Source: Nitrospirota bacterium (GTDB taxonomy: Bacteria > Nitrospirota > JACRHL01). Taken from it: DNA of 64,000 bases. The notes beneath the pieces are model-generated. The model made no database searches, was not told the origin of the DNA, and saw only the letters and a program-made list of their open reading frames with translations. This document shows, piece by piece, positions 11,466 through 64,000 of this stretch; the first letter of the stretch is position 1, and the number at the start of each line of letters is the position of its first letter. The position numbers and the translations under genes were made by a program. The stretch lies in assembly GCA_029881725.1 (NCBI GenBank), contig JAOUMB010000010.1, positions 1,539-65,538 of the forward strand. The letters are read 5' to 3'.

Positions 11466-11821
11466 CGGTCTGTCCTCCGCAAAATTTTTTCAGTTCCAAC
11501 CGCCACCCACCGGACCATCCCGCGCCCCGCACCGGGACCCGATCCCATGACTCTACTCCCGGACATGCGCCGGAGAAACCATTTTTTTCCGGATGAATTA
11601 ATCAACAGTATCCGCCGGTGTTTTCCAACCGGAATCCGGTCCGATTTACCAGCAACCAAGGGCGCCGGACGGTGATCCGCCCCCCTTGCGGCAGGAACCG
11701 GGCGATACCCGGAAGCGGCCCGTCCCCACGTTTTTTTACCGCCACGTTCGGGGTGGCTCTGCTACCTTCAAGCGGGGACCGGATCGATTCCGGCGTTGGG
11801 CCGTTTGCCACCGGGAGTTCC

Positions 11822-22416: not shown

Positions 22417-22524
22417 TGGCGGTCACCACCGGTCAATGGGTTTCCTGCTCGAGTTCAAGGCCTGTATCCCTATCACCTGTGCAACCCCGGCTTCCGCCCG
22501 CCGGGTCGCCACCCAATCACTCCC

Positions 22525-28410: not shown

Positions 28411-28531
28411 CGTTCCCTCTCCCAGGCAGGGGATAATCGAACCCCGGCGGGCCATCCATGGCCATGCCGGTCGGTCCACTGTTCCAGAAGATTTACATTT
28501 TGGCAACCCGGCGGGCGGGCGCAGAGGCTGT

Positions 28532-28843
28532 CTAAGCGGCGGAAAGATGGATGGAAGTGGCGGCGCAGTAGTCACATTGCATCACCAGATGCCGCTGGTG
28601 GGATTCCGTCTCGCAGTGCATGACGCCGCTCAACTGGCCACTGCCACACACCCGGCACGGTTGCTCCTGTCCGCTGTGGTCGTGGGCGCGGGAAACGGTC
28701 ACTTCCGCCTGACAGGCGGTACAGGCCGCCCGGTAGCTATCCCCCCCACTCATGCAGGTGGAATGCAGTTCCAACTCCCCGGCGCCGCAGCAGGGGCAAC
28801 TGGTGGCCGCCAGCATGATGCGGGCACTGGCCTGATGATTCAT
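28532..28843 (-). CDS. Small Cys-rich protein (putative zinc-ribbon).
   Basis: About 103 aa from ATG MNHQASARIML with a GGAGGA RBS. Cys pairs CPCCG...C..C, CRVCG, CDYC. Sits between the beta-barrel gene and the A2M gene. Confidence 0.45.
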   Translation of the reverse strand: MNHQASARIMLAATSCPCCGAGELELHSTCMSGGDSYRAACTACQAEVTVSRAHDHSGQEQPCRVCGSGQLSGVMHCETESHQRHLVMQCDYCAATSIHLSAA

Positions 28844-34348: not shown

Positions 34349-34393
34349 CGGTTTACCTCAGTGCGCGCCCGCAACCGGCCAATAAAAATTCGA

Positions 34394-46028: not shown

Positions 46029-46109
46029 AGGTCCATCTCCGCGATAGTTGGCAAACGATGTCTGCCGGTCAAGCCGTTCATATCCACTCCTGGCACCCTG
46101 CCTTCCCGG

Positions 46110-47498
46110 TTAGTTCAACCGGATCTCGGTGATCATGCCACCCCTGTTGTCCACTCCCAGGCCTGCCTGGCGATCGGCCAGAGACAGGTTTGCCTGGGTG
46201 TCCAGTTCGCGCCCGTACAGAAAATACGTTCCCGGAGCCAGCCCCGTGGTGTCCAGAATCACGTCCATCTCTTCCCCCCCGGCCAGCGCCAGGGCTGAAC
46301 GATGGTAGGAAAGGTCGGTGCCCGGAACGCCACCCGGGCCGTCCGGTCCGCGCAGGATCTTGGCATCCTTGCCCACCACGTGCATGGGAATGCCCGGGAT
46401 GACCAGCGAGTGCGAACGGTAGGTCAGGTTGTTGAGGCGCAGCAGGATGCGCTGCCCCACATTGGCCGTAATCAGCGACGAATACGGCTGGGCGATATAG
46501 TCTTCCTTGTAGGCGGAAGCGCCGTTCAGCATGACGTTGGCAGCCGGATCCGGCGCCGCCGGGAGTAATGTCTCCGGATAGGCACGACCGTTGAAGGTGT
46601 AGTAGTTGGCCTTGAACTCGGCCCACACGTTGCGCCCTTCCGCCACGGTCTCCAGATTATGGTGCTTGTCCGCGTCCAGGTCGTGCATGTGAATCACCTG
46701 GGCCACGTCATACCGGGTGTTGGGCGCGGCGCCGCCATCGTTGTAGGCGAAGAACTGCCCGGCGGCCGGGTTGTTCTGGGCCGGATTGACGATAATCGTG
46801 CCCACCATGCCCAGGGCGATGTGCTCCGTCGGCTCCACGTGGCAGTGGTAGCCGTAGGTGCCCGGATCGTTCAACTTGTAGAAATAGGTAAAGTTGCTCG
46901 AAGGTGGAACCGCAACCGACATCTCTGGCACCCCGTCAAACGCCGAAACCGCGTGTGCATACCCGTGGAAGTGGACCGTATGCGGGTCCGCCAGGTCGGG
47001 GCGCACCAACAGCCCGAGGTTGGTGATCGTCAGATAGAGGGACTGTCCCTCGTCCACTTCAATATCGGGTGCCGGAAGCGTAGCCTTGAATTTATAGTCG
47101 ATCAGGTCTGCCTCGGGCACTCCCGTCAGGTCCATGAATCCGAAAATGAACAGGTTGCTGCCGTCCGGCATCTTCACATAGCCGTCGGTGGTGCCCACCC
47201 GACGGCATACCGCCGTGGGGTCGATGGGCAGGCCACTCTTGTGGTTGTACGCGCCGTCGCCGTTCCAGTCGATGTCCTCGGCACCCGGGGTTGCGCTGTA
47301 GCCCGGAGCGGCGGGGTCCAGGGACCAGTCGTACGGCATGTTGTCAATATCGTTGGGGCACTGCATGCCCGTGCCCAGGGAAACCGGAGCGGTAACGGCC
47401 CAGGAGTCGGTGGCTCCGGCCAGCCCGGTGGCGGCCATGGCCAGCCCGAGGATCATGGTTTTGGCCAGATTCCATTTGTTGGAGCGCCGCGGCTTCAT
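46110..47498 (-). CDS. Multicopper-oxidase / NirK-like cupredoxin protein with an apparently complete set of copper ligands.
   Basis: Signal peptide MKPRRSNKWNLAKTMILGLAMAATGLAGA (possible Tat-like RR). HTVHFHG (HxHG), YGYHCHVEPTEHIALGMVG (H-C-H...H....M type-1 site), later VIHMHDLDADKHH. RBS GGGGAG. Confidence 0.8.
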   Translation of the reverse strand: MKPRRSNKWNLAKTMILGLAMAATGLAGATDSWAVTAPVSLGTGMQCPNDIDNMPYDWSLDPAAPGYSATPGAEDIDWNGDGAYNHKSGLPIDPTAVCRRVGTTDGYVKMPDGSNLFIFGFMDLTGVPEADLIDYKFKATLPAPDIEVDEGQSLYLTITNLGLLVRPDLADPHTVHFHGYAHAVSAFDGVPEMSVAVPPSSNFTYFYKLNDPGTYGYHCHVEPTEHIALGMVGTIIVNPAQNNPAAGQFFAYNDGGAAPNTRYDVAQVIHMHDLDADKHHNLETVAEGRNVWAEFKANYYTFNGRAYPETLLPAAPDPAANVMLNGASAYKEDYIAQPYSSLITANVGQRILLRLNNLTYRSHSLVIPGIPMHVVGKDAKILRGPDGPGGVPGTDLSYHRSALALAGGEEMDVILDTTGLAPGTYFLYGRELDTQANLSLADRQAGLGVDNRGGMITEIRLN

Positions 47499-47659
47499 CT
47501 CAAATTCTCCCCGCATCAGGTCGATCTTGCGGGTGGCCGGGCACAGGTTCAGATTCCCGGTGTTCTCTGCTTTTGAATCTTGTTTCATACTCAGTCCAAC
47601 CCTTGGTCACACAAAAAAGAGGGGGTGGGGGTGGCCGAAGCCACCCCCACCCGTTGGGG

Positions 47660-50266: not shown

Positions 50267-50317
50267 CTTAATACTCCCACTGTTCACAGAACGACACATC
50301 CTTGTTGTTCATTTAAA

Positions 50318-50926
50318 TCAGTACAATCTGTAATCGGCGCTGGTGCTCTCACCGGTCACCGGACCATCACGCCCGGTCATGCTGCCCATCACGTCCACCA
50401 GGACGTAGCCGGCGGCACTGCGGCGGTTACTTACTGTCGGAAACGAACCCGAATCAAACGGCAGGGACCCCAACGCCAGTTCCATCAGATCGGTAAAGCC
50501 GTCCTGATCGCTGTTGGTGAACTGAATCTCCCCCGCGGTCAGCACCACGGTGGCCAATAGCGGATCGGTCCAGTTCAGATTGGCGGTGGTCCGGCCCACC
50601 ACGGTGCGGGTGGAGCCATCATCGATCAGAAACACGATGTCCAGGGCCAGCGTGGGTCCGCTATGGCGGATGCTGTCCTGAACGGCCCCGGTGGCGGGAT
50701 CGATATTCAGTTCCACCACACTTCCATTGGCAAGGTGTGCCTCGGCCACCAGCGTCCCGCCTGGAACCTGATGGTGTACCAGTTGGGAAGGAAGATCGAT
50801 CTTGAAATCCTTCGCCGCCGAAGCACCGCCGCCCTCGGGGCCACCCGTTGCACCGCACCCCGCAGTCACGAGCATCATCGAGACTCCGAGGAACAGCCAC
50901 CGGAACCTTGCGCCGGTTTTTGTCAT
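50318..50926 (-). CDS. Hypothetical lipoprotein.
   Basis: MTKTGARFRWLFLGVSMMLVTAGCG (lipobox VTAGC). No recognisable motifs. Lies immediately upstream of the collagen-like gene. Confidence 0.55.
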   Translation of the reverse strand: MTKTGARFRWLFLGVSMMLVTAGCGATGGPEGGGASAAKDFKIDLPSQLVHHQVPGGTLVAEAHLANGSVVELNIDPATGAVQDSIRHSGPTLALDIVFLIDDGSTRTVVGRTTANLNWTDPLLATVVLTAGEIQFTNSDQDGFTDLMELALGSLPFDSGSFPTVSNRRSAAGYVLVDVMGSMTGRDGPVTGESTSADYRLY

Positions 50927-51447
50927 TGATCTAAAACACACGGTTATTTAACTCCTGCCTTCTGTCGCCAGACCGGTATTTTCCGGCCGATTCGACCTGT
51001 GCTGGATCCGGGTTACTCAAACACCTTAACAACCCGTCCCCATCCGGAGACTTGATCCCATCCATGGGCACTCCACAAACACAGTTCCATTCGTGTCTGC
51101 ACAATATCAGTGCACCAGACGATTGCAGGTTCTTTGCCAATCGTCCCGCTTTTCGTAAACATGATTATCTTACAGTCACTTATGATCGACTCGCACTGAG
51201 CACTCGTCAATTCACAACCAAACACTTTCTATTGCTGGGAAAAAGTTTAGGACTTTCCGACAAAATATTGACGAAACTCTTTCCCTTTGGAAATGAGTAC
51301 ATTTACATAGCACTTTTGAGGGGGGTGGGGGTTCCGCAAGGGGATAGCGGAACACGGAGGCGGTTATCCGGAAACCGGAAGTTCAAGAGGGAGGAATTGA
51401 GGCCAGATTTTCGGCACCGCGCGGGAGGCGCGCGGGGGGAAGGATAA

Positions 51448-51975
51448 TCAGTTACCCAGATCGGTTCCCGAGGTCGCGGTGACGCGGTCCGGAAGCACCG
51501 TTCCGTCCACCCCGATAAAGGTGGTGCCATCCCAGACCAGAGCCCCGTTGTTGCCGGTTCCCGAAAGGTCAAAACGGAGGGTTCCCAGCGTTCCTTCCGA
51601 AACCCCTTCCAGGGCCACCAGCAAACGGCCCGGATCACTGGTCAACGGCAGCATCCGTGCCGCGCCAAGGAGGGGATTGGCGGTGAAGCCGGAAAACGTC
51701 ATCCATGTGGGATCGAACAGGATTTCGGCCGAAATGCCGCCCACCCCGGCCAGGTTCAACGTGGGGTCCAGGTTGGACAGGGACAGGGTCACGTCCGCGC
51801 GGGTTGCGGTGGAGCCGGGTAACAGGGTGAGTGACAGGAGATTTTCACTGGCACCATGCCCGCCGCCCGGAACGACCGGGTCACCCCCACCCACGCCACC
51901 TCCACCACAGGCGGCAAGCAGCACGCAGACCAGTGCGGCGCAAAGAGGCGCTGATATCCAGTGGCCACGGGTCAT
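51448..51975 (-). CDS. Small lipoprotein of about 175 aa, probably beta-rich (speculative cohesin-like partner for the dockerin proteins).
   Basis: MTRGHWISAPLCAALVCVLLAACGGGG (lipobox LAAC). Its ATG overlaps the TGA of the upstream S8 peptidase gene (ATGA). Ser/Thr/Gly-rich, strand-like sequence. Confidence 0.55.
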   Translation of the reverse strand: MTRGHWISAPLCAALVCVLLAACGGGGVGGGDPVVPGGGHGASENLLSLTLLPGSTATRADVTLSLSNLDPTLNLAGVGGISAEILFDPTWMTFSGFTANPLLGAARMLPLTSDPGRLLVALEGVSEGTLGTLRFDLSGTGNNGALVWDGTTFIGVDGTVLPDRVTATSGTDLGN

Positions 51976-53918
51976 GGAAGCCCCCTTTTCGAACCAAACA
52001 GGGACTCCAGCAGCAGCCGGTCGGCGCCGTCCAGAACCCCGTCGCCGTTCAGGTCGAAGCGGGGGTGCGGACTGGGGGAGGTCATCGCCGTGGTCAGGCT
52101 GACCAGGTCGAATGCGTCCACCCGCCCGTCCGTGGCCACGGCGCCACGGTTTACATCGCCCGGCATGGCCTCCGCCGGGGCGCTGCGCAAGGACGGATTT
52201 CCGCCGTCCACCGCTTCCACGGTATAGATGTCCCCCGGACCGAAGGCCCGTCCGGAATCGGTCAGTTCCAGTCCGGTGGTGGTTCCCAGCGCAAACCCGT
52301 TTCGGGATACCGCATAGGCAATCCCCGCGCCCCGGCCGGGCACCGCGTCCCACCGGACGCTCACCCCGGTGCCGGTTTCGGCCAGCCAGAGGTCCGGAAC
52401 ACGTGCCACCTTCGGAGCCAGTCCCCATCCAGCGTTGCCGGCCAGCAGCTGGTTGAAGGCTGCGGTGATGTCAATCAGGCCGAACCCGTACTGGTTGTTC
52501 GGTGTGGCACCCCCATCCAGCGGGATGGCGGTCAATGCCAGCGCGGCCTCCACCTCATCCACGGTCAGATCCGGAAATGCCGACAGCAAGAGCGCCACCG
52601 CGCCGGTCACGTGGGCAGCGGCAATGGAGGTGCCGTTGAAATACTGATAGTTGGCCACGCCGCCATTGCTGAAGGTGGCGGTGTAGACCTCCTGGCCGGG
52701 GGCCACCACATCTGGATACTGGGGGCGGCCGGCACAGGTGGTGGGTCCCTGCCCGCTGCTCTGCCCGGCAAAATTCCACAAAGCCCCCTGCGGGTTGGTG
52801 GCTCCCACCGCGATCACCTCCGGATACCCGGCGGGAAGGTGCGGCTTGCCGTCGTTGCCGGCCGAGGCCACCAGCACCACACCGGCGGCACGCAGGTTTT
52901 GCATGGCCACTTGCAGGTCGGTGTAGGTGTTGCAGGATTTTCCCGGTTCCACGGTGGATTGCAGCGACCAGCTCATGTTGATCACGTCCGGCGGAGTGGT
53001 TTCCAGCAACCACTGCAACGCACCCAACGCGGCGGCCACGTCGGAAGTACCGTTGGCATTGATAATGCGTGCGGCGGCCCACGATGCATCCGGGGCCAGG
53101 CCAATCCCCTGTCCGGAAGCGGCATGCCCCAGAATGGTGCCCATCACACCGGTTCCGTGCCCGGAATAGGCGGAACTGGAGGGGTGATCGGCAGGGACCG
53201 GGGAGCCGGGACACGGCCCGGCACCGGTGCCGGTGGTATCGCACCAGCCACGAGCCCCGGCGCGATAGCGGCTGGGAACCAGATCCGGGTGACGTGGGTC
53301 CACACCGGTATCGGTGGTGGCCACCACAACCTCTCCTCCGGTGTAGCCCATGGCCCACACCGGAGCGGCATTGACCTCGGTCAGGTTCCATCCCTCCGGG
53401 GCCACTCCGCCCCCGCCACCCCCAGCCTGGGGAACCAGCGGCACGCTGACCGGTGCGTTTTCAATGATGCGCGCCTCGGGAAACTGGGCGGCAAGTTGAC
53501 GGATGGTTTCGGGAGTGGCATCCAGGGCCACGGCGTTGATCAGCCACAGGGGGCGCATACGCGTGGCGCGCCCGGCCCGCACATGTTGTTGCAACTGGGG
53601 CAATGCGGTCTGTTGGGTCGCCTCGGCGGCCCGGCGCAGACCGGAAATCATCCCCTGCCGGCGCATTATGCGCGGCTTTCCGGCCACGGACGGGCGCAGT
53701 GCCGGATCGTCGGGAAATACCAGAATCACCGGCACCAGGTCGCCGGACCCGGCGGCGGCCATGCGCCCCTTCAGGGTGGCGTCAATGGTGCCGGCGGATA
53801 CCTCGGGGGAGTCGCTCCACTGCATGGCCAGCGCCAGCAGGAACAGGGCAAAGGCAAACCCCGCGCCGATGGCGGCGGGGGTGCCGTAATTGCCTGATTT
53901 TCCGGAGGGAATGCGCAC
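51972..53918 (-). CDS. Subtilisin-like S8 serine peptidase with a C-terminal type-I dockerin module.
   Basis: GTG start. N-terminal signal anchor. Catalytic triad motifs VVATTDTGVD (Asp), SGHGTGVMGTILG (His), GTSIAAAHVTGAVALL (Ser). C-terminal DVNRGAVATDGRVDAFDLVSL...RFDLNGDGVLDGADRLLL (two Ca-binding dockerin segments). Confidence 0.85.
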   Translation of the reverse strand: MRIPSGKSGNYGTPAAIGAGFAFALFLLALAMQWSDSPEVSAGTIDATLKGRMAAAGSGDLVPVILVFPDDPALRPSVAGKPRIMRRQGMISGLRRAAEATQQTALPQLQQHVRAGRATRMRPLWLINAVALDATPETIRQLAAQFPEARIIENAPVSVPLVPQAGGGGGGVAPEGWNLTEVNAAPVWAMGYTGGEVVVATTDTGVDPRHPDLVPSRYRAGARGWCDTTGTGAGPCPGSPVPADHPSSSAYSGHGTGVMGTILGHAASGQGIGLAPDASWAAARIINANGTSDVAAALGALQWLLETTPPDVINMSWSLQSTVEPGKSCNTYTDLQVAMQNLRAAGVVLVASAGNDGKPHLPAGYPEVIAVGATNPQGALWNFAGQSSGQGPTTCAGRPQYPDVVAPGQEVYTATFSNGGVANYQYFNGTSIAAAHVTGAVALLLSAFPDLTVDEVEAALALTAIPLDGGATPNNQYGFGLIDITAAFNQLLAGNAGWGLAPKVARVPDLWLAETGTGVSVRWDAVPGRGAGIAYAVSRNGFALGTTTGLELTDSGRAFGPGDIYTVEAVDGGNPSLRSAPAEAMPGDVNRGAVATDGRVDAFDLVSLTTAMTSPSPHPRFDLNGDGVLDGADRLLLESLFGSKRGLP

Positions 53919-53933
53919 GCCGTGGGGAGTCCC

Positions 53934-54386
53934 CTAGTTCACCTTCCAGCCATCCACCACCACCTCGCCGAAGTGGAGTTCCACCGGATCACCCGGCTCG
54001 AACACCATATCCGGGTTCTTGAACAGGGAGTAATAGATGCGCTCCGGACGGGTGCGGGTGGCCTTGGTGCGCAACAGGCCGAGCATGGTGTGCGGAATCT
54101 CCGCCACCTGACCGCTGGCCGGCTCCACCAGATACATGGGGATGTCGGAGGCCGCGCGCAGCAGCTTGCTGGCCTGCTCCGGGTTCACCACCCGGAAACG
54201 CAGGTCCAGCATATGCCCTCCGGCGGTGGTGCGCAGGCTGACCAGTTCGATACCGATCTCCCGGGCCAGCCGCTCCTCGGAGGGCGACTTTTTGCTGAGC
54301 ATCGCCGCCGGACCGTGGGCGCAGGCCCCCAATCCGAGCAGCCCCGCGGAAAGCACCAGCGCCGACAGCATTCCGGTCCACTTCAT
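53934..54386 (-). CDS. Hypothetical lipoprotein.
   Basis: MKWTGMLSALVLSAGLLGLGACAHG (lipobox LGAC). About 150 aa, no motifs. Confidence 0.55.
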   Translation of the reverse strand: MKWTGMLSALVLSAGLLGLGACAHGPAAMLSKKSPSEERLAREIGIELVSLRTTAGGHMLDLRFRVVNPEQASKLLRAASDIPMYLVEPASGQVAEIPHTMLGLLRTKATRTRPERIYYSLFKNPDMVFEPGDPVELHFGEVVVDGWKVN

Positions 54387-54411
54387 GCCATTCCCCCTGC
54401 CTGCCGTTCGA

Positions 54412-57400
54412 TTAATTTGCAACACGGTTCCGCTCCCACAATCCCAGGTCGTTCATCTTGACGCAGCCGTCACCGCTCAGATCGGCCGCGGGGTTGAAGC
54501 CCGCGTTACCGGTGCACAGTCCCAGCTGCTCCATCAGCACCAGATAGTCGGCGTCGTCCACCTGACCGTCTCCGTTGATGTCGCCCGACACCGTTCCCGG
54601 TGAAATCGGAGTGACGGTGACCACCACCAGGTCGGTGGTGGCCGCGCCATCCGGGTCGGTCACGGTGAGGGTCGCGTTGTAGGTACCCGCCGCGATGTAG
54701 CTGTGCTGGGTCGGAGCGTCCAAAGTGGTCCGTCCGGTGCCGTCACCGAAGTTCCACAGATAGGTCAGCCCCGCCTGATCCAGCGGACTCGGGTCGGTGG
54801 CCGTGGCATTGAATACCGCGGGGGTTCCGACTCCGACCGTGAGATCCGGCCCGGCGTTCACCACCGGCGCCACGTTGGCCACATCGGCGTAGAAGGCCGC
54901 CTGCTGCACCAGCCCGTCGAGAATCAGCGTCAGGGTGGCGATGTAGGTGCCGCTGTCGGCATAGACGTGGTTGAAGATCACCGGTCCGGTGCCACTCACC
55001 GCCGTGGTCCCGTCACCGTAGTTCCAGGTCCACGACCCGGCCCCCAGTTCGGAGATCGGCTGGGTGATGGCGATGCCCTCGAACCCGGCCAGACGGAACC
55101 CGGCGATATTCGCCAGCGCCTCCGGACAGGTGTGCACCGCCATGGTCGCCGTCATCTCGTCGGCGCCGGCGTCCATGCAGAACTGCAACGGACGCGGGTC
55201 CCCGTCGAAGTCCGCCACCGGCAGGATGATTCCCTGCGCGGCCAGGTCGGTAATACCGGCCTGCAGGGCGGGCGATCCGTCCATGATGTGGTAGTCGCCC
55301 TGGGGCAGCAGCGGGCCGAAGTCCACCGCCACCGGCACCGCCAGCGGGTTGATGGCCACCTCACCAGCGGCGCGTACCACCACACCGGTCAGCCAGTTGT
55401 CATACGGGGCCTTGAACAGCGGCCAGTTGGCGCCGCTGCCCACATAGTTCAGGGTCGGCTGAGCCACCGGAAGGGCGCGCACCAGCGACTGGTCCGAGAA
55501 CAGGTTATGGGTCGCCCGGGTCAGAGTTCCGGTCATCTGGTACAGGTCCAGATCGTAGGCCTGCGGCAGATCGAAGGTCGTGATCGGCTCGTTCCAGCGG
55601 TACGACAGGTTGTCCCAGAACACGTTGTTGTACAGGGCCGGGTTGCTGTGCACCGGTGATCCCGGAACCTGATACGGAACCGAGTTGCGGTACACCACCA
55701 GACCCGCCGAGTGGTGACCCGGATCCAGCAGCAGGGATCCCGCCGTGGAGGTGGTCACGTTCTTGGCGATGGTGTTGTGGGTGAGCACCACATCCAGGGC
55801 GTCGTGGACCTTGATGGCGCCCTGTCCGGCCGCCACGTTGTTCACGATCTGGTTGTTCGTCACCTCGATGCGATGGGCACCGGTCTGGGTGAAGGAAATC
55901 GCCGAACCGTCCTCGGTGGAGAAGTTCCCCTGCAACCGGTTGTTGAGAATCCGCACCTGGCCGGAGCCGGTGGACGCCACGCCCACCGCGCCCGGAGGCG
56001 GACCCTTCACGCTGATGCCGCCACCGTCCACCAATGACCAGTTGAACAGCACTTCGTTGTGCTCGATGACGTTCACCCCGCCGGCCGTGGCCAGATGCGA
56101 GATGCCGCCACCACTGGTGTTGGAGCCGTTGGCGCACACCAGGTTATGGTCGATGCGGTAGTTGCTCACCCCCTGGTAGACGCCGATACCACCGGCCTCA
56201 CCCGGGGTACCGTTGTTCAGCACCAGGTTGTGATGCACGCGGGCACCGTCGATGAAGTTGTCCGGATATCCGGCGAAGCCGATGGCGATACCGCCGGTCA
56301 GCATGCCGAAGTTGTTGATCACCTTGCTGTTGGACACCACGGTGCCGTGGGCGAACACGTTCACGTGCACGCCACCGCCCAGGCGGCCGCCCTCGATCTG
56401 CAAGCCGTCGACGCGCACGCCCGGATCGGGATCCAGCGGCGTTCCAACGGGCAGCGGGTTGATGGACAGATCCCGCGCCAGCACGGTCAGCGTGGACAGG
56501 GCACCGGCGGTCGGATGAATCTGCTCCAGCAGGTTCGCGTCGCGGTTGATGTTCACGATCTGGTCCAGCTTTTGCCGCCAGAGCTGCTTGGACAGCGGCG
56601 TGACCGTCTCGCTCACGATCTGGGTGGCACCGGGGCCGAAGCCCTGAAGAGTGATGCCCTTGTAGACGATCGGGCTTTCCGGGTAGCGCACCGGGAGGTT
56701 CACGTTACCCGGCACCAGCAACAGGGTGCCATACGGAGAGCGGTCGATGGCGTCCTGAATGGTCTCGTTCGGGAACAGCGCCAGGCCCGAGCCGCCCACC
56801 GTCTCGATGTGCGGGTTATAGGCCACGCCGAGCTTGTGGATGGTCATGCCCGAAGGGGTCACCTTCAGATTGTCGGCGGTCACCAGCAACTGGTGCGGAC
56901 CGTCGGCAATCGCGGTCACCCCGTCGGCGGCGGCGATCTGCACGGTAATGGCGGTATCACTCCAGGTGGTCACCGCCAGGGGGATGCCATCCAGGGTCAC
57001 CTTGCCCAGCCCCTGCAGGGCGCCGAAGCCGGTACCAAAGATGTTCAGCACGCCGCCGGTGGCCAGCGGGTCATCCACCCCCGCGATCTGCGGGGTGCGG
57101 GTGGCCGGCTGGGCCGGATCGTCGATCAGGCACACCACGTTTTTGCTGGCAAAGAAGCCGTTCACCGGGGTCAGCGCCATGTCGGCGTAAGAGGTCTTGC
57201 CCGGATACAGCTCGAACTGCATGCGCAAGGTGTCGTAGTCCGGATTGAAGGCCGGATCGATCTGACCGCCGTAGCCCGGATGGTTGGCGTACACCGCCAC
57301 CATGTTGGGCACCATGCCGGACGGGGACGGGGCGTTCACCCGGCTGGTGGACGGCAACAGCACCTCGAAGTAGCCGTTCTCGTCGGTATAGGTGTGCACG

Positions 57401-60400
57401 ACCTCGACACCCTTGTAGTCCTGGACCGAAACCGGCACGAACGCCACGCCGCGCTTGTCGCCGAAGTTGGTCACGGTGCCGCGGGTTTCCAGGTTCAGGT
57501 TGTCGTTTACAAACCCGCGCAGACGCGCCGGGGTCGGCACCTCGGTAAACAGGTGGAAGTCCGACGCCGCGTTGTTGGCGTTGGTGACCGTCACCACCTT
57601 GAGGCCGCAGTCGTGCACCCGGGTCCCCAGGAACGGGTTGGGCGGATCGTTCAACTGCGTCACGTCATACATTGGACCCACGCAGCCGCTGGGCGCCAGC
57701 ATGGCCGCCACCGGTTCCGCATAGGGGTTGGCGCCAAAGGTATCGCCCTGGGTGAAGGCGTTGACGTCGTTGGAGGTCATCAGCTTGTACGGTTCCGGAA
57801 CATGCACCTCCACCAGGTACTTGCCCGGGGCAAGCGGTCCGCACAGGCCGCTTTCCGGGTCGAACAACGCGTTCGGGTCGGTGCTGGTATCGTCACGGCA
57901 GTCCTCGAAGAACTGATACCCGCCGTCAAACACCGCCGGTTTGATCTGGTTCCAGGTCTGCAACACGTCCCGGCACTCCAGGTCCACGTGCTGGGTGACG
58001 GTGCCGTCCGGCTGCAGCTTCTGCACGGTGCAGTTGGCGGGCGGAGCGGCGTTGTAATGGTCGGTCTGCACGGTGCCGATCAGGCGCCCCTTGCGGGCCG
58101 CGCCGGCACTCGGGTCCGGATTGGGGATCATGACTCCCGGGTTTGTGGGGTCCTCGATCATATCCGGGACCGTCACCAGGGCGCCGGTGACCGGGTCGAT
58201 CACCGCTTCGTGCAGGTGCAGGGTGATGTTGGGGATACCCGGCTCCCACGGCTCCGGCCCTTCCAGACTGACGTCGTAGTTGGCGCGGGTGGTGTTGTAC
58301 CAGACCACGCCGGACACGCCACCGTTGATGGCCACATAGTCATTGCCCGCGGCCGCGTTGCCCACGGTCGGATACGGCTTTTTACCCCAGTCGATGCGGT
58401 TGGTGCCACCTTCCAGCATGAAGGTACCCATGGTCAGCACCGGACCCACGTCGGTACGCACCTCCAACGGTGGCTCACCCAGGTTGGTCAGGCCGATAGC
58501 CGCGGTAATGGTGGCGCCGGTGGCGGCCATGTTGGTGTAGCCCACCGCCGGAACCATCCAGTGACCGAACGGGAAGAAGTGACGCAGATGGTATTCGCCG
58601 GCACCGTTGGTGACGGTGGCATACAGGGCGCTGCCGTCCCGGTGGCGGACCTCCACGGCCTCGCCGGAAAGGCCCTGCTCACCAGCATCCTGGATGCCGT
58701 TCTCGTTCCAGTCCAGGAACACGCTGCCTTTGAGCTGACCCCACCAGTCGGGGATCAACAGGGAACGCTGGGCCCCGGCGCCAAAGCGCGGATCGAACAC
58801 CTCCACATCGCGGGACTCGATGCCGTTGGCCAGCAGTTGCGGCATGGACACCGTGTAGGTGGCCATGATGAAGTCCAACGCGTCGTCGAACGCCACCAGA
58901 CTGTAGTTGCCGTCGGGCACGCCGGTGATGGCGAAATTACCGTCCGCATCGCCGCGCACCAGCGCAATCTGCTTGCCGTTGGCGTCATTAAGGGCCAACC
59001 AGGGGAAAGGCACCGGGCCACTGATGCCGTCCGGTACCGTGAACGGCGGCCGCGACGGCTCCACCTTGGACAACTTGCCCCAGAAGCGGCCGGTGCCCGG
59101 CGCCATCAGGCCCGAGTTGCAGGAGCCGACCGCGCACGGCTGCACAAAGCCGTGGAAGATCAGCGCCGCGGTCTCCACCGGGAACACGCCCTCGTTGCCT
59201 TCGAGCACAAAGGCGTCGATGACCTTGCTGCCCTCGATGGTGGTGGTCTGAATCCAACCGGAACCCTGCGGAGGCAGGGCCAGCACCTCGTACTTGCCGG
59301 CCGGGATGTTCTCAATGGAAACAAAGCCGTTGCCGTCGGTCCAGCAGGTACCGCCGGTGCCAGCAATCAGATTGCCCGCGGGATCATATTTGGAGCAGAT
59401 CGGATTGCCGTAGTAGTCCTCGGTCATCATTCCGCCGGCATCGTTGATCACGATCCTGAACGGCTGCACGGTGCCGGAACCCTGGATGTACTCGCCGGAG
59501 TTCAGGTCGTACTGGCGGCCCAGGGTGGGGGCGGTCTCGGTCTGCCAATCCCAGGTGCCGTTCAGGGGCGAGGTGTCCTCGAACACCTGCACCACGATAC
59601 GCGACAGCGGGGTGGGTCCGAAATGCACCGGCACGGTTACCGTAACCGGCGCCGCATCGACGGTAAAGGCGCGCCCGTCCATCTTGTGCAGTCCGCCGTC
59701 CAGGGCGGCCTGATCGGCGACGGTGCCATCGTTGGTGATGACGCTCACGAAGTAACGGCCCGGCAGCAGGTTGACCGTGCCCCCCACACCGCCGACCACC
59801 GTGCCCGCCGCAACCGGCGGGGTGTTGCTCTGATACTGCTTGTGGGACGGGCAGTCATCCGCCACGCCGTTGCCGTTCAGGTCCGCGCACCCCAGAAGGG
59901 ACGGGTCCACGATCGGCGTGTTGTCCACGTTGATCATGAACTTGAAGTTGGGGATCGACGTCGGCAGGCTGGTCAGCGGGTCGATGGTGTCTTCCTGCAC
60001 CAGTACGGTGACCGGAACGGTGCCGGTGGGCGGCGGGTTGGTCCAGTCCACATGGGCGGTGGACTGCACCTGCAGGGTGATGGCGGCCAGCGCCACACCC
60101 CCGTTGCCGTCCTCCGCCTGCACCTGCAGGGTCACGTCGTAGTTTCCACCGGTAGCGGAGTTGCTGATGTTGGGCCAGCTGACCGCGCCGGTGATGTTGT
60201 CGATGGTGGCACCGGGAGGCGGGCTGAGCAGGTAATAGGTGATGGTGTCGGTCACGTTCACGTCGCTGGCGACCACGGTGGCCGAAAACGAGGTGCCAGC
60301 GGTAATGGGCACGGTGCCGGTGATCGGCGTGACGCCGTTCAGCAACACCTGGTCAATTACCGGGTTCATGTTGACCGTGAGGGGAATCGCCTGGGTCACC

Positions 60401-61680
60401 GTGGTGGTGGCCATATTCAGCACCATGTGGCTGACGCCGGCCTCCAGGTTCATGGTATACGGTCCGGCATAGCCCAGCGGCACATCCCAGGAAATGCGCC
60501 CGGTGGCCGGGTCGATCAGCATGCCCGCAGGGGGCGCATCCACACCGATCGGGGCAGGCCCGGTAAAGCCGTATTGCAGGGTGGCGTCCAGATCGTCGGC
60601 CATCACACCCACCATGTCGTAGGTGTACAACTGCCCCTCGGTCGCCTGGGTGGGGGGCGTGGAAACGATGGACAAGCCGGTGGCGGCGGCGTCCTGCACC
60701 CGGATCATGGTGATCATGCCGCCCGGGAAGCGATCGCCGTTGGTAATGTCCATGGCGCGGTCGAACAGGGAATGCATCCCGGCGGCGGTCGGGGTAACGG
60801 TCAGGTCGCGGGTCTCACCCGGGGTGGTGACCGCCGAGTGGGTTTCGCGCGGGAAGTTCTCGGGGAAGCCGTCGGTGGCGATCGCGGTCTGCTCCAGGTT
60901 GTCGATCACGATGACGTGATCCTGGGAGCTGGCGTTGACGTAGCGCAGCAGAATGGTGCCACCGGCGTGGCCCAGGATTTCCCGGGTTTCCGGATAGGCC
61001 TTGCCGTTGATCAGCCAGTAGTATGGCTTGAAATAAAGGGGGTTGTAGGAGCCGGTATGGGTTCCACCGGCATACACGGCGTTGTGCCATACCGGGTCGA
61101 TGTCGCTCAGCACGATCACCGCCTCCCGGTCGTTGGCGCCGCCCCCCGCATAGGCGATGCGGTTGGTAACCGGATCGTAGCCGGCGGGGCGCACGATCAG
61201 CGCGCCGTGCAGACCCATCTGCACCTGCTTGGACTGGTTGGTGGCGCTCTCATACAGGAAGGTGCCGGCACGGGGCGCCAGCACGGAAAACGATCCGCTG
61301 GTTCCGGGGGCGATCTCGGTGGTATAGGAACGCTTGGCGGCGGCCGAGGCGTCGGTGCTCGGCACGATGCTCAACCCCGGCACCATGAACGAGGTGGCTT
61401 CCGGCAGATCATTCTTGATGTTCACGGTCAGGCCCATGCCGGGGGAAACCTCCAGCACCGGGCCGGGAAGGGTCGGTGCGGGTGCGGCGGCGCAGGTGGG
61501 GTCGGCGCCGCAGTCGGCATATCCCCAAATGGGCACCGTCACCCCGTCCGGCATGGTCACCGTGCCGGTGGCCGCCCGCAGGTTATAGGTTTCCGCCCAG
61601 GCGTTTCCAGACCATCCGGCGCCCAGCAGGAGCGCCAGCATTGCCGTGAAAAGAATGCTCTTGTAACAGCGGCTAACCAT
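54412..61680 (-). CDS. Giant secreted multidomain protein of about 2420 aa: N-terminal copper-ligand-free cupredoxin/MCO-like domain, Ig/cadherin-like and CarD-like beta-sandwich domains, right-handed parallel beta-helix, two PKD domains, C-terminal type-I dockerin.
   Basis: RBS GAGGTGG plus ATG MVSRCYKSILFTAMLALLLGAGWSGNAWA. N-terminus ETYNLRAATGTVTMPDGVTVPIWGY...GTFLYESATNQSKQVQMGLHGALIV parallels the adjacent MCO genes but lacks His/Cys ligands. PbH1-like repeats (NNFGMLTGGIAIGF...HHNLVLNNG...GGIGVYQGVSNYRIDHNLVCANG...GGGISV). PKD motifs WTWNYGDGTTAV...YADSGTYIATLT and YLWNFGDGTG...YIAAGTYNATLTVTDPDG. C-terminal GDINGDGQVDDADYLVLMEQLG...ADLSGDGCVKMNDLGLW. Confidence 0.85.
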   Translation of the reverse strand: MVSRCYKSILFTAMLALLLGAGWSGNAWAETYNLRAATGTVTMPDGVTVPIWGYADCGADPTCAAAPAPTLPGPVLEVSPGMGLTVNIKNDLPEATSFMVPGLSIVPSTDASAAAKRSYTTEIAPGTSGSFSVLAPRAGTFLYESATNQSKQVQMGLHGALIVRPAGYDPVTNRIAYAGGGANDREAVIVLSDIDPVWHNAVYAGGTHTGSYNPLYFKPYYWLINGKAYPETREILGHAGGTILLRYVNASSQDHVIVIDNLEQTAIATDGFPENFPRETHSAVTTPGETRDLTVTPTAAGMHSLFDRAMDITNGDRFPGGMITMIRVQDAAATGLSIVSTPPTQATEGQLYTYDMVGVMADDLDATLQYGFTGPAPIGVDAPPAGMLIDPATGRISWDVPLGYAGPYTMNLEAGVSHMVLNMATTTVTQAIPLTVNMNPVIDQVLLNGVTPITGTVPITAGTSFSATVVASDVNVTDTITYYLLSPPPGATIDNITGAVSWPNISNSATGGNYDVTLQVQAEDGNGGVALAAITLQVQSTAHVDWTNPPPTGTVPVTVLVQEDTIDPLTSLPTSIPNFKFMINVDNTPIVDPSLLGCADLNGNGVADDCPSHKQYQSNTPPVAAGTVVGGVGGTVNLLPGRYFVSVITNDGTVADQAALDGGLHKMDGRAFTVDAAPVTVTVPVHFGPTPLSRIVVQVFEDTSPLNGTWDWQTETAPTLGRQYDLNSGEYIQGSGTVQPFRIVINDAGGMMTEDYYGNPICSKYDPAGNLIAGTGGTCWTDGNGFVSIENIPAGKYEVLALPPQGSGWIQTTTIEGSKVIDAFVLEGNEGVFPVETAALIFHGFVQPCAVGSCNSGLMAPGTGRFWGKLSKVEPSRPPFTVPDGISGPVPFPWLALNDANGKQIALVRGDADGNFAITGVPDGNYSLVAFDDALDFIMATYTVSMPQLLANGIESRDVEVFDPRFGAGAQRSLLIPDWWGQLKGSVFLDWNENGIQDAGEQGLSGEAVEVRHRDGSALYATVTNGAGEYHLRHFFPFGHWMVPAVGYTNMAATGATITAAIGLTNLGEPPLEVRTDVGPVLTMGTFMLEGGTNRIDWGKKPYPTVGNAAAGNDYVAINGGVSGVVWYNTTRANYDVSLEGPEPWEPGIPNITLHLHEAVIDPVTGALVTVPDMIEDPTNPGVMIPNPDPSAGAARKGRLIGTVQTDHYNAAPPANCTVQKLQPDGTVTQHVDLECRDVLQTWNQIKPAVFDGGYQFFEDCRDDTSTDPNALFDPESGLCGPLAPGKYLVEVHVPEPYKLMTSNDVNAFTQGDTFGANPYAEPVAAMLAPSGCVGPMYDVTQLNDPPNPFLGTRVHDCGLKVVTVTNANNAASDFHLFTEVPTPARLRGFVNDNLNLETRGTVTNFGDKRGVAFVPVSVQDYKGVEVVHTYTDENGYFEVLLPSTSRVNAPSPSGMVPNMVAVYANHPGYGGQIDPAFNPDYDTLRMQFELYPGKTSYADMALTPVNGFFASKNVVCLIDDPAQPATRTPQIAGVDDPLATGGVLNIFGTGFGALQGLGKVTLDGIPLAVTTWSDTAITVQIAAADGVTAIADGPHQLLVTADNLKVTPSGMTIHKLGVAYNPHIETVGGSGLALFPNETIQDAIDRSPYGTLLLVPGNVNLPVRYPESPIVYKGITLQGFGPGATQIVSETVTPLSKQLWRQKLDQIVNINRDANLLEQIHPTAGALSTLTVLARDLSINPLPVGTPLDPDPGVRVDGLQIEGGRLGGGVHVNVFAHGTVVSNSKVINNFGMLTGGIAIGFAGYPDNFIDGARVHHNLVLNNGTPGEAGGIGVYQGVSNYRIDHNLVCANGSNTSGGGISHLATAGGVNVIEHNEVLFNWSLVDGGGISVKGPPPGAVGVASTGSGQVRILNNRLQGNFSTEDGSAISFTQTGAHRIEVTNNQIVNNVAAGQGAIKVHDALDVVLTHNTIAKNVTTSTAGSLLLDPGHHSAGLVVYRNSVPYQVPGSPVHSNPALYNNVFWDNLSYRWNEPITTFDLPQAYDLDLYQMTGTLTRATHNLFSDQSLVRALPVAQPTLNYVGSGANWPLFKAPYDNWLTGVVVRAAGEVAINPLAVPVAVDFGPLLPQGDYHIMDGSPALQAGITDLAAQGIILPVADFDGDPRPLQFCMDAGADEMTATMAVHTCPEALANIAGFRLAGFEGIAITQPISELGAGSWTWNYGDGTTAVSGTGPVIFNHVYADSGTYIATLTLILDGLVQQAAFYADVANVAPVVNAGPDLTVGVGTPAVFNATATDPSPLDQAGLTYLWNFGDGTGRTTLDAPTQHSYIAAGTYNATLTVTDPDGAATTDLVVVTVTPISPGTVSGDINGDGQVDDADYLVLMEQLGLCTGNAGFNPAADLSGDGCVKMNDLGLWERNRVAN

Positions 61681-61793
61681 GTTCACCACCTCGTTCCTCA
61701 CCGGAGTCATATTCATATTCCTTGCCCCCGAAATCCTCTGGGTACGGCTTTGCAGCCCGTCACGCCGGTCACACATACCATTCCGATCCATGA

Positions 61794-64000
61794 CTACTGC
61801 CCCACCGGATTAAGGGTTACAAACACATCGAGCACCGCGTTCAGGTCGCCGGACACCAGGTTGTCCGCGAGGGACTCGAACACCGCGTATCGTCCATCGC
61901 CGCTGAGTGCCGAGCGCATACTGGAGGCGTTGCCCTCCAGTCCGTCAAAGTTGACGGACAGCCGGGCGATCTCACCGGTCAGCATGTCTTTCACGAAGGC
62001 ATCCGGCGCGGCGTTGGTGTCTCCCGCCACCAGGTTGGTGGCATCCGACCAGAACACCACGAAGCGGCCGTTGCTGGAAATCACCGGGTTGTAGCTGGCA
62101 CCGTTGCCCTCCACTCCCGCGGCGCTTTCGGAAGCGCGCGCCACCTGGCCGGTAAACAGGTTTTTCACGAAGATGTCCGTCTCCACATTGGTATCGGACG
62201 GCACCAGGTTGCTGGCCAGCGAGGCAAACGCCACGATCGTGCCGTCCGCGTTCAGGGACGCCGAACCGCTGCCGTTGTTGCCTCCCGCGCCCGCGGCGTT
62301 CTCGGAGGCGCGGAACATCTGCCCGGTGGACAGGTCGGCCACCAGCACGTCGGCAATCAGGTTGCCGTCCATCAGGTCCAGGTTGCCGGCAGTGGTCTCG
62401 AACGCCACCCGGGTACCGTCGGCACTGAGCGACGGTTTGTCGCTGTCGCCGTTACCCTCCACACCGGAGCCCCCTTCCTGGGTGATGCGCACCAGACCAT
62501 TGGTGACCAGATCCTTCACGAACACGTCCCTGCGGCCGTTCTCGTCGCCCGGCACCAGGTTGTTGGCCAGCGAGGCGAAGGCCACGGTTCGGCCAGCCGC
62601 GCTGATCACCGGGGAGAAGCTGTGGTAATTGGCCTCGACGCCGGAACCCGTGGCCGACACCCGCATGATCGAGCCGGACACGGTGTCCTTGACGAACACG
62701 TCGGCATACCCGTTGGTGTCTCCCGCCACCAGGCTGTCCTGATAGGAGATGAAGGCCACATAGCGCCCCGATCCGCTGATGGAGGGGAACTGGCTGCCCA
62801 GCACGTGGTTGGTTCCACCCACCGCCGGGTCCTCCACGGACACGCGGGTGATCACGCCGGACAGGCGGTCCTTGACATAGACGTCGTAGGTTCCGTTGCC
62901 GTCACCCGGGTCCAGGTTGGTGGCCGTCGTATGGAAGGCCACAAAACGCCCGTCGCTGCTGGCCGACACCGCGAAACTGCGGGCATTGGCCTGCACTTCC
63001 AGGCTGTCGGTGCTGACCGGTTCATAATCGACGCCGTACAGGGTCGGCCGGAAGATGATGCCACCCTGATCGTACAGGGCCACATCGGCCATCAGGTCGC
63101 CGGAGGAAGGTGCGGCGCTGGTGTGGAACACAGTGCCGTTCTTCTTGTAGACCACGGTATTGCCCACCCGCTCCACCCGCAGCACGTCATCGGTGCGGTA
63201 GGCGCCGAAGCGTCCCTGGGAAATGCCGCTCTCCAGCACCTCCAGGTTGCCGTCACCACGCAGCCAGATGGCAAAGTCGATGGTGTCGTAGTTGGCGGAC
63301 CCGTTCACGTTGGACAGACCGGCGAAGCGCCACCGGGCGGTGGTGTCGGCGGTGAACTCAAAGGCGCCGTCGCGCGGGATCACCTGCAGCGAAGCCGCGC
63401 CGCCGTTGCCATAGGCACTGGCCGCGGTCTTGGTGAGCACGCCGAACGGCTCGCCGACTCCGACCAGATCCGTCCACGCCACCGGCACCCCACGGGGCAC
63501 CGAGGCCAGGGTGGTGAAGCTGCCTCCCGGCATCACGGTGACGTTGAACGCCGCGTCCCGGCTCTTGGCGTCGAACTGATAGGTGGAGGTGGGCTGAAGC
63601 CCCTTGATCACCACCGAATGGGTGGTGGACAGGTTGGTGTTTTCCGGGGTGCTGGCTTCAGCGGTGGACGCAATGCCGTACAGCACCTGAGAGGTGGCCG
63701 GCTCGTTGGTCTGCCACTCGATGATGGCGCTGCCGACCCCCACGTGGCGGATGATCACATCGGTGAACACCGGCGGCACGGTATCGGCACCGGCGCCGTA
63801 GATCAGCGCGTTGACGATCTCGCCGCCCTGGTCGTACAGGGCCACGTCAACCACCAGGCTGCCGTTGGAGGGGACCGTGCTGGTGTAGAACGGCACGCCG
63901 TTCTTCAGATAGGTGATGACCGTGCCGCTGCGCTGCACGCGCAGGGCGTCGCCGATCTGGTAATAGCCGAAGGAGCCCTTGCTCACACCGCCCTCAAACA
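61794..64000 (-). CDS. Secreted protein with an FN3/purple-acid-phosphatase-N-like domain and about 8 PD40 (TolB-like WD40-like beta-propeller) repeats. The C-terminal 730 aa are in the window and the N-terminus lies beyond the window end.
   Basis: Repeats of the form DGR(Y/F)VAF.S.A.NLV.GDTN...DVFVKD (for example SGSGRYVAFISYQDSLVAGDTNGYADVFVKD). FN3-like PPVFTDVIIRHVGVGSAIIEWQTNEPATSQVLYG. The frame stays open through the last window base (codons ...FEGGVSKGSF...). Confidence 0.7.
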   Translation of the reverse strand, partial: FEGGVSKGSFGYYQIGDALRVQRSGTVITYLKNGVPFYTSTVPSNGSLVVDVALYDQGGEIVNALIYGAGADTVPPVFTDVIIRHVGVGSAIIEWQTNEPATSQVLYGIASTAEASTPENTNLSTTHSVVIKGLQPTSTYQFDAKSRDAAFNVTVMPGGSFTTLASVPRGVPVAWTDLVGVGEPFGVLTKTAASAYGNGGAASLQVIPRDGAFEFTADTTARWRFAGLSNVNGSANYDTIDFAIWLRGDGNLEVLESGISQGRFGAYRTDDVLRVERVGNTVVYKKNGTVFHTSAAPSSGDLMADVALYDQGGIIFRPTLYGVDYEPVSTDSLEVQANARSFAVSASSDGRFVAFHTTATNLDPGDGNGTYDVYVKDRLSGVITRVSVEDPAVGGTNHVLGSQFPSISGSGRYVAFISYQDSLVAGDTNGYADVFVKDTVSGSIMRVSATGSGVEANYHSFSPVISAAGRTVAFASLANNLVPGDENGRRDVFVKDLVTNGLVRITQEGGSGVEGNGDSDKPSLSADGTRVAFETTAGNLDLMDGNLIADVLVADLSTGQMFRASENAAGAGGNNGSGSASLNADGTIVAFASLASNLVPSDTNVETDIFVKNLFTGQVARASESAAGVEGNGASYNPVISSNGRFVVFWSDATNLVAGDTNAAPDAFVKDMLTGEIARLSVNFDGLEGNASSMRSALSGDGRYAVFESLADNLVSGDLNAVLDVFVTLNPVGQ

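Follow-up and report, generated by a model that had tools for sequence, protein, structure and literature searches.

A cohesin-fold lipoprotein gene paired with a dockerin-tailed subtilase gene in Nitrospirota and its probable role as an envelope tether

Results

Gene content of the locus

The locus was analysed within a window of 64 kb, which is the whole stretch of DNA considered here, and all features given with coordinates below lie on its minus strand. The most upstream gene is present with its 3' part (61794..64000) and matches fn3/Pur_ac_phosph_N and PD40 propeller repeats in Pfam. In the near-identical contig L001 it encodes 1466 aa, and the gene for a giant secreted protein (54412..61791) follows it immediately in the same orientation. 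The longest ORF of the latter has 2459 aa, with 61710 or 61680 as the likely start. Its domains are a cupredoxin-like N-terminus (Cu-oxidase_3), He_PIG, SdrD_B, CarboxypepD_reg, TIG, Beta_helix, two PKD domains and a dockerin; orthologues of identical architecture were found in the loci L009 and L010. Downstream follow the genes for the small lipoprotein D (53934..54386, 150 aa), an S8 subtilase (51972..53918, 648 aa; full model of Pfam Peptidase_S8, 1.2e-44) and the small lipoprotein B (51448..51975). The subtilase is composed of an N-terminal hydrophobic signal or anchor, a propeptide-like region, the catalytic domain, a beta-sandwich spacer and a C-terminal dockerin, and the catalytic Asp, His and Ser motifs DTGVD, HGTGV and GTSIAAAH were recognised by eye. 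Its stop codon overlaps the start codon of B in the sequence ATGA (51972-51975), as stated in the original prediction for this locus. An AT-richer gap of roughly 500 bp (50942-51447) parts B from the small lipoprotein A (50318..50941), which heads a transcription unit with collagen-like and multicopper-oxidase (MCO) genes. Two MCO-like genes were assigned by Pfam at 44724..47588 (44724-46028 and 46110-47588). Multihaem cytochromes are encoded near the locus within the window.

A signal peptide and a lipobox Cys are present in A, B and D, in agreement with the earlier claim that three small lipoproteins lie among the dockerin genes. Lipidation is predicted from the pattern [LVI][ASTVI][GAS]C, to which LAAC in B, LGAC in D and TAGC in A (within VTAGC) correspond. 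D is a conserved Ig-like beta-sandwich, which is kept between the giant and S8 genes in the window as well as in L009, L010, L011, L012 and L013; being a generic sandwich of this type with no cohesin match, it was rejected as a cohesin. For A, neither a Pfam or NCBIfam match nor a PDB sequence match was obtained. An hhalign comparison of A with the cohesin family aligned the signal peptide only and gave no sign of a cohesin fold, and A was not found beside the cassette in L008-L011 or L013.

The host is an uncultured Nitrospirota bacterium represented by a MAG, D being 100% identical to NCBI OEY97_04345. Therefore, the remark on proteobacteria in the original prediction does not apply to this locus.

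Dockerin modules of the subtilase and the giant protein

Type I dockerins consist of two tandem 12-residue Ca2+-binding loops (D-x-N/D-x-D-G-x-V/I-x-x-x-D), each followed by a helix. All six frames of the window were scanned with the strict motif D.[NDS].[DNS]G.[VILM]..xD, which gave three matches, all at the C-termini of the giant protein (54547-54582 and 54448-54483) and the subtilase (52020-52055). Using Pfam Dockerin_1 with a gathering cutoff of 22.9 bits, the module of the giant protein (54445..54585, residues 2403-2449) scored 24.3 bits and that of the subtilase (52005..52160, residues 587-638) 20.9 bits, i.e. below the cutoff, which the subtilase orthologues exceed with 23.5, 29.8 and 24.5 bits. 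Both segments of the giant protein are canonical (DINGDGQVDDADYLVL and DLSGDGCVKMNDLGLW). In the subtilase, segment 2 is canonical (DLNGDGVLDGADRLLL) and segment 1 is atypical, as an insertion of six residues separates loop positions 3 and 5 (DVN-RGAVAT-DGRVDAFDL). Judged from the sequence, this insertion could impair Ca2+ binding. A profile of nine S8 tails was compared with the PDB; solved dockerins ranked first (2y3n_B, E 1e-11), whereas calmodulin-type EF-hands were far weaker. The claim that two proteins end in duplicated dockerin segments was confirmed, with segment 1 of the subtilase deviating from the canonical loop, and both the subtilase and the giant protein carry genuine dockerin modules.

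Conservation of the modules in orthologues had been set beforehand as a test. The insertion and the segment pattern of the S8 dockerin are conserved among orthologues. The dockerin of the giant protein constitutes a separate conserved sequence class, which is not universal, as the orthologous giants of L011 and L013 lack a dockerin. In view of this difference in class and the absence from these two orthologues, the giant protein of this genome may bind B as well or rely on a cohesin encoded elsewhere.

Lipoprotein B and its family

Cohesin domains are nine-stranded flattened beta-sandwiches of the jelly-roll type. In B, the signal peptide and the lipobox with Cys23 are followed by a Gly-rich linker of ~20 residues (about residues 24-44) and one cohesin-fold domain (residues 45-175, nt 51451-51843), which is backed by an AF2 model, Foldseek and the family profile. 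Cys23 is invariant in an alignment of 23 family sequences. The AF2 model has a pLDDT above 94 for residues 45-175 and shows about 10 strands. In a Foldseek search of this model against the PDB, the best 49 matches were exclusively cohesins (best E 2.8e-7; target-normalised TM 0.59-0.71). Among them are OlpA and OlpC, which are anchors with a single cohesin, and the non-cellulosomal cohesin of Archaeoglobus.

At the sequence level, B alone gave no Pfam, NCBIfam or significant PDB match; for Pfam Cohesin, no match was obtained at E up to 1 and the gathering cutoff of 24.1 bits was not reached. A single-sequence PDB lead to the “autonomous cohesin” 4wkz/4n2o was discarded, since it was sub-threshold (E about 0.5) and even a chance match to Endo H ranked above it. 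A word-indexed homologue search with B found just three close relatives, and an exhaustive profile search was needed to obtain the family. The latter retrieved about 20 small lipoproteins as well as long proteins, and each of the 10 long proteins tested contained Pfam Cohesin (E down to 7e-70). Four of the 23 family members match Pfam Cohesin (PF00963) directly (best 1.1e-10), and hhalign aligned the B family with a cohesin protein over 112 columns at a probability of 84% (E 7e-6). B has a cohesin fold and profile-level homology to cohesins. In the HMMER searches suggested with the original prediction, Dockerin_1 recognised the giant protein and narrowly missed the subtilase, and Cohesin matched neither A nor B. 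No further cohesin was detected by hmmsearch in all six-frame ORFs of the window, which holds one cohesin-family gene.

Conservation of the gene pair and the cassette

In all 11 loci examined (the window, L003, L004, L005, L006, L007, L008, L009, L010, L011 and L013), a gene for a dockerin-tailed S8 protease lies directly upstream of a cohesin lipoprotein gene. The two genes overlap by 4 nt in 8 of the loci, and the identity of the cohesins drops to about 30%. A second pair was found in L013, in which another dockerin-tailed giant gene is followed by a second cohesin lipoprotein gene, again with a 4-nt overlap; with Pfam Cohesin, this lipoprotein scores 26.6 bits and so exceeds the cutoff of 24.1. 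The other loci have only one cohesin-family gene per cassette. L012 encodes an S8 protease with a dockerin-like tail and no adjoining cohesin gene, which counts against a tether function.

The recurrent cassette comprises MCO-like genes, a giant SdrD_B-type protein, D, the S8 protease and the cohesin lipoprotein. Its neighbourhoods vary: besides the second pair in L013, the giant gene is missing in L008 and extra genes are inserted in L011. PEP-CTERM proteins are encoded within the cassettes of L009 and L010, and I9-like inhibitor genes inside that of L011. The MCO-like genes recur beside the giant, D and S8 genes in L011, L012 and L013. Of the adjacent MCO and collagen-like genes named in the earlier proposal, the MCO-like ones are therefore part of a recurrent neighbourhood; for the collagen-like gene as a member of the cassette, no evidence was found.

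According to the names attached to the database entries, every named source of the pair belongs to the Nitrospirota. The taxonomy rests on these names, as one scan of the GTDB representative genomes gave no confirmed relative. The gene pair of a predicted lipid-anchored cohesin and a dockerin-bearing protease is conserved in the loci examined.

Discussion

Cohesin and dockerin serve cellulosomes as their classic modular glue between proteins, which is widely used in synthetic biology and known mainly from plant-fibre-degrading bacteria. To our knowledge, cohesin-dockerin pairs outside cellulosomes have come to light almost exclusively through domain surveys. We consider it likely that the locus encodes a minimal, non-cellulosomal, lipid-anchored one-to-one tether of this kind. 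Both B and the subtilase would leave the cytoplasm by Sec export. B would present a single cohesin module, joined by a flexible Gly-rich linker to its lipidated N-terminal Cys, and the dockerin of the subtilase would most likely plug into this module after export. By analogy with characterised dockerins, the joining would depend on Ca2+, and the protease would be held on a cell-envelope membrane in a one-to-one complex. We infer the binding, its Ca2+ dependence and the membrane and face which would carry the complex. By default lipoprotein sorting in diderms, B would reside in the outer membrane facing the periplasm and not on the surface. Secreted proteins are probably attached to the membrane by this pair in the manner of plug and socket, and the subtilase might have the giant or MCO proteins encoded beside it as substrates. 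A cellulosome, in which a scaffoldin with multiple cohesins integrates dockerin-bearing carbohydrate-active enzymes, was rejected, because there is one cohesin per lipoprotein and the dockerins are found on a subtilase and an MCO-like/PKD protein; no glycoside-hydrolase match was found with Pfam in 18 window proteins (8 in or beside the cluster and 10 further upstream).

Some proteins with cohesin-like folds do not bind dockerins, which counts against the tether. B could be cohesin-like and serve the protease in another way, for example by inhibiting it as a dedicated partner, by assisting its folding or maturation as a chaperone or by acting as an adaptor for substrates, with the dockerin-like tail as a stand-alone Ca2+-binding stabiliser. 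Tight translational coupling as between B and S8 is equally typical of protease-inhibitor and protease-chaperone pairs, and the I9-like genes of L011, the atypical segment 1 of the S8 dockerin and the missing direct Pfam Cohesin match of B point in the same direction. However, the fold of B matches specifically dockerin-binding cohesins, and in L013 such a lipoprotein follows a non-protease giant which shares only the dockerin tail with S8, so that the lipoprotein goes with the dockerin and not with the catalytic domain. We regard a role as inhibitor, chaperone or adaptor as unlikely. It is very unlikely, in our view, that the tails and the adjoining lipoprotein are functionally unrelated and their adjacency goes back to common descent within a small group of closely related genomes instead of selection. 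All named members come from one phylum and many contigs are short metagenome fragments; the pairing nevertheless survives a cohesin identity of ~30% and differing neighbourhoods (L008, L011 and L013), and the 4-nt overlap is retained in most of the loci.

A broader arrangement would be a multi-component surface complex, in which A, B and D are cohesin-like outer-membrane anchors displaying the giant protein, the protease, the MCOs and the collagen-like protein. The lipoboxes of all three small proteins and the conserved position of D between the giant and S8 genes are in line with this, and the PEP-CTERM proteins of L009 and L010 hint at an extracellular destination. The underlying idea of the original prediction, that the small lipoproteins are cohesin-like anchors, is upheld for B by the family profile, AF2/Foldseek and the conserved pairing, but not for D, an Ig-like sandwich, nor for A, with its signal-peptide similarity only. 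Such a complex seems quite improbable to us, and a tether made of B and the dockerin of the subtilase is preferred.

The closest parallels to this tether are OlpA/Cthe_3080 and OlpC/Cthe_0452 of Clostridium thermocellum (PDB 3ul4 and 4dh2), both among the Foldseek matches of B, in which one cohesin fixes one dockerin enzyme to the envelope with no multi-cohesin scaffoldin. These differ in having SLH anchors, a Gram-positive wall and a cellulosome of carbohydrate-active enzymes, whereas the Nitrospirota locus has a predicted N-terminal lipid anchor, a diderm envelope, a subtilase and possibly an MCO-like giant as cargo, and one-to-one genes with overlapping codons. A genome survey by Peer et al. 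in 2009 reportedly catalogued modules of both kinds in non-cellulosomal proteins; like those described here, they lie outside plant-fibre degradation and often on proteases and adhesin-like proteins. The non-cellulosomal cohesin of Archaeoglobus fulgidus (PDB 2xdh) is a structural match of B, as are PDB 2jh2, 2w1n and 2ozn from the Coh-X82/FIVAR complexes of Clostridium perfringens toxins and glycosidases. The latter are likewise non-cellulosomal and pairwise and join secreted enzymes, but their host is a Gram-positive pathogen, both modules belong to large secreted glycoside hydrolases, and there is no membrane anchor. In ANME archaea and the Gram-negative sulfate reducers that partner with them, cohesin/dockerin adhesin clusters have been annotated (PMC10553843). 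These resemble the present locus in that the partners are diderms, cohesin and dockerin lie near S8 protease, CARDB and Ig-like proteins, and the hosts are rich in multihaem cytochromes (PMC10553843). In contrast, they are proposed inter-cell adhesins, based on domain annotation and expression, and their description includes neither a lipid-anchored single cohesin nor translationally coupled pairs (PMC10553843). A literature search brought up no account of a cohesin family made of lipoproteins, of cohesins of this kind in Nitrospirota, or of a conserved gene pair of a dockerin protein followed by a cohesin lipoprotein.

The locus offers a compact natural case in a diderm phylum, with one predicted lipid-anchored cohesin, its putative cognate dockerin on a protease, conserved translational coupling and a 2,400-residue protein whose dockerin is of a second class. 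Nitrospirota include iron, manganese and nitrite oxidisers. As a more far-reaching and rather doubtful reading, the phylum might possess a family of lipid-anchored single cohesins as dedicated anchors from a gene of their own, each clipping its own co-made large dockerin-tailed exoprotein to the outer membrane; here, the subtilase, the giant cupredoxin-like protein and the MCOs would form a metal-oxidising or redox complex of the envelope beside multihaem cytochromes. If this were true, cohesin-dockerin assembly would extend beyond fibre digestion and take in the lithotrophic energy or metal metabolism of diderms. If binding is confirmed, the B family would be defined as cohesins which Pfam's model mostly misses, and the pair would show how very large secreted proteins can be tethered to a membrane without lipidating them. 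It would also provide a handle on an uncharacterised Nitrospirota cassette of MCO-like genes, the giant protein, D and the S8 protease.

Gene organization and domain content

From the 3' end of the window, the minus-strand cluster comprises a partial fn3/PD40-repeat gene (61794-64000), a giant gene (54412-61791; longest ORF 2459 aa), lipoprotein D (53934-54386), the S8 subtilase (51972-53918; Pfam Peptidase_S8, 1.2e-44) and lipoprotein B (51448-51975). An AT-richer gap of ~500 bp separates B from lipoprotein A (50318-50941), a collagen-repeat gene (47660-50299; 879 aa, Pfam Collagen 1e-96) and two MCO-like genes (44724-47588), all on the same strand. A, B and D each carry a lipobox cysteine, and the ATGA overlap noted between the S8 stop codon and the B start codon is present in the sequence. 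The domain calls of the original prediction were reproduced with Pfam, i.e. Peptidase_S8 in the subtilase, a multidomain architecture of the giant protein (Cu-oxidase_3, He_PIG, SdrD_B, CarboxypepD_reg, Beta_helix and two PKD domains) and Dockerin_1 in both. Its proteobacterial setting has to be corrected: D is 100% identical to OEY97_04345 of a Nitrospirota MAG, hence the host is a diderm, not a proteobacterium. A metagenome contig in ENA matches the window almost identically.

Multicopper oxidase domain 1 usually carries a His-rich HSH copper-ligand motif. In the Cu-oxidase_3 domain of the giant protein (residues ~107-202; ~61150-61480, -), GTFLYESA was read by eye at this position, therefore the N-terminal cupredoxin domain may be copper-free and purely structural. 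Lipoprotein A, encoded just ahead of the collagen triple-helix protein (47660-50941, -), has a thrombospondin-type-3-like Ca-binding motif in its C-terminal part (NSDQDGFTDLMELALG); A and the collagen gene are in a transcription unit distinct from the cohesin cassette.

Dockerin modules

Both the S8 protease and the giant protein end in dockerins, as had been proposed. The strict Ca-loop motif was matched three times in six frames of the 64 kb, always in these two C-termini. The giant protein reached 24.3 bits against Dockerin_1 (Pfam cutoff 22.9), and the window S8 fell just short of the cutoff with 20.9 bits. The same tail is found in S8 orthologues, several of which exceed the cutoff (23.5, 29.8 and 24.5 bits). 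For a profile of nine S8 tails, the best PDB matches were solved dockerins (2y3n_B, 1e-11), whereas calmodulin-type EF-hands were weaker by orders of magnitude. Alignment of the tails gave two conserved classes. In S8 dockerins, six extra residues are inserted into the first loop (G-N/D-V-N-xxxxxT-x-x-R-V-D-x-F-D-L), and the second segment is canonical; in giant dockerins, the first segment is canonical (GDxNxDGxVDxxDY) and the second ends with a conserved Trp.

Lipoprotein B as a divergent cohesin

Single-sequence searches with B gave no Pfam or NCBIfam match and no significant PDB sequence match, and a homologue search found only three close relatives. When a profile built from B and these three was searched exhaustively with HMMER, 48 proteins were retrieved. 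About 20 are lipoproteins of 173-204 aa with a layout like B; the others are long, and multiple Pfam Cohesin domains were present in all ten tested. The lipobox Cys is invariant across an alignment of 23 small family members, four of which match Pfam Cohesin directly (best 1.1e-10); the subfamily is thus missed by Pfam in most members. Comparison of the B family with one cohesin protein using hhalign gave 84% probability (E 7e-6, 112 columns). AlphaFold2, run with the family alignment, predicted an all-beta domain at residues 45-175 (pLDDT > 94), preceded by a low-confidence Gly-rich linker. All of the top 49 Foldseek matches of this model in the PDB were cohesins, spanning cellulosomal types I, II and III, the single-cohesin anchors OlpA and OlpC, and non-cellulosomal cohesins of C. 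perfringens and Archaeoglobus. From these profile and model comparisons, we concluded that B is a divergent cohesin with a predicted lipid anchor. The proposal that the small lipoproteins are cohesin-like was therefore supported for B but not for A, whose alignment to the cohesin profile was limited to the signal peptide and gave no cohesin evidence.

Pairing of S8 and cohesin across loci

An S8 protease with a dockerin-type tail lies directly upstream of the cohesin lipoprotein in every locus with visible upstream sequence (n=11: the window, L003, L004, L005, L006, L007, L008, L009, L010, L011 and L013; many comparison contigs are short). Cohesin identity falls to ~30% across these loci, and the two genes overlap by 4 nt in 8 of the 11. 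The full set, in the order giant protein with dockerin, PEP-CTERM protein, D, S8 and cohesin, is present in L009 and L010; L007 and L008 (Leptospirillia) have the S8-cohesin pair alone. L011 and L013 contain MCO-like genes, a giant protein without dockerin, D, S8 and cohesin. L013 is the most telling locus: behind its first pair lies the gene of an NHL/HYR protein (2057 aa) whose tail is of dockerin type, and this gene overlaps by 4 nt with a second cohesin lipoprotein gene (26.6 bits against Pfam Cohesin; cutoff 24.1). Thus, the lipoprotein goes with the dockerin rather than with the protease domain. In L012, whose more distant cassette comprises D, three MCO-like genes and an S8 with dockerin-like tail, no cohesin gene was found beside S8; the association is therefore strong, not universal. 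All members with a source name in their database entries are from Nitrospirota.

Cassette variants and neighbouring genes

Two to three divergent MCO-like genes recur beside the giant SdrD_B-type protein, D and S8 in several loci (window 44724-47588, -; L011 43-2634; L012 6136-9983; L013 1-749), which points to a conserved copper-oxidase-associated cassette of Nitrospirota that is as yet uncharacterised. For Ca. Manganitrophaceae, "two novel MCOs" are mentioned in each genome (PMC9040806). PEP-CTERM (exosortase-sorting) proteins separate the giant dockerin protein from D in L009 (6885-7514) and L010 (7142-7273) but not in the window, a hint that exosortase-dependent sorting and a cohesin-dockerin tether are used together in some relatives. 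The interval from D to S8 in L011 encodes two small proteins (10516-11515) with weak matches to the subtilase propeptide-like Inhibitor_I9, which may serve S8 as separate inhibitors or chaperones. A 201-aa ankyrin-repeat protein (11614-12219) lies between these genes and S8, and the window encodes a 678-aa Sel1 and ankyrin-repeat protein (39908-41944, +). Since ankyrin proteins are uncommon in bacteria, this recurrence may be non-accidental.

Two multihaem c-type cytochromes with Cytochrome_C7 and MtrC/MtrF-like domains (32573-34348 and 34394-36064, -) adjoin a 720-aa protein without Pfam match (35983-38145, -); the region 32573-38145 (-) may encode an electron conduit of the porin-cytochrome type. 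In L008 and L009, the cohesin cassette is likewise flanked by small multihaem cytochromes. At 20065-28575 (-), a 2016-aa bacterial alpha-2-macroglobulin adjoins a PBP1C-type penicillin-binding protein. These two make up the classic periplasmic defence pair of diderm bacteria, which fits a Gram-negative envelope.

Proposed cohesin-dockerin tether

A cellulosome was ruled out, as the window has neither a multi-cohesin scaffoldin nor, among the 18 of its proteins scanned with Pfam, carbohydrate-active enzymes of the glycoside-hydrolase type. The system fits among the non-cellulosomal cohesin-dockerin modules that have been catalogued in all three domains of life, and among the annotated examples from ANME archaea and the Gram-negative sulfate reducers that partner them (PMC10553843). 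In its proposed function it resembles OlpA and OlpC of C. thermocellum, which are single-cohesin anchoring proteins. It stands apart from the known cases by its predicted lipid anchor, by strictly paired genes and by a cohesin subfamily that mostly escapes Pfam; a description of a lipid-anchored, gene-paired cohesin-dockerin system was not found in the literature.

A one-to-one cohesin-dockerin tether is the best-supported model. B would be exported, presumably lipidated at Cys23, and display its single cohesin on a linker of ~20 residues. The lipobox Cys is followed by Gly at position +2, which in E. coli directs lipoproteins to the outer membrane; by analogy, B would be destined for the outer membrane, on either face. 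The co-translated S8 would dock on B via its C-terminal dockerin, probably with Ca2+, which is involved in characterised dockerins. The giant dockerin, which is of a different sequence class and absent in some orthologues, could share cohesin B or use an unlinked cohesin. Such a tether would keep an active subtilase membrane-bound and close to its probable clients, namely the giant protein and the MCO-like proteins from this cassette.
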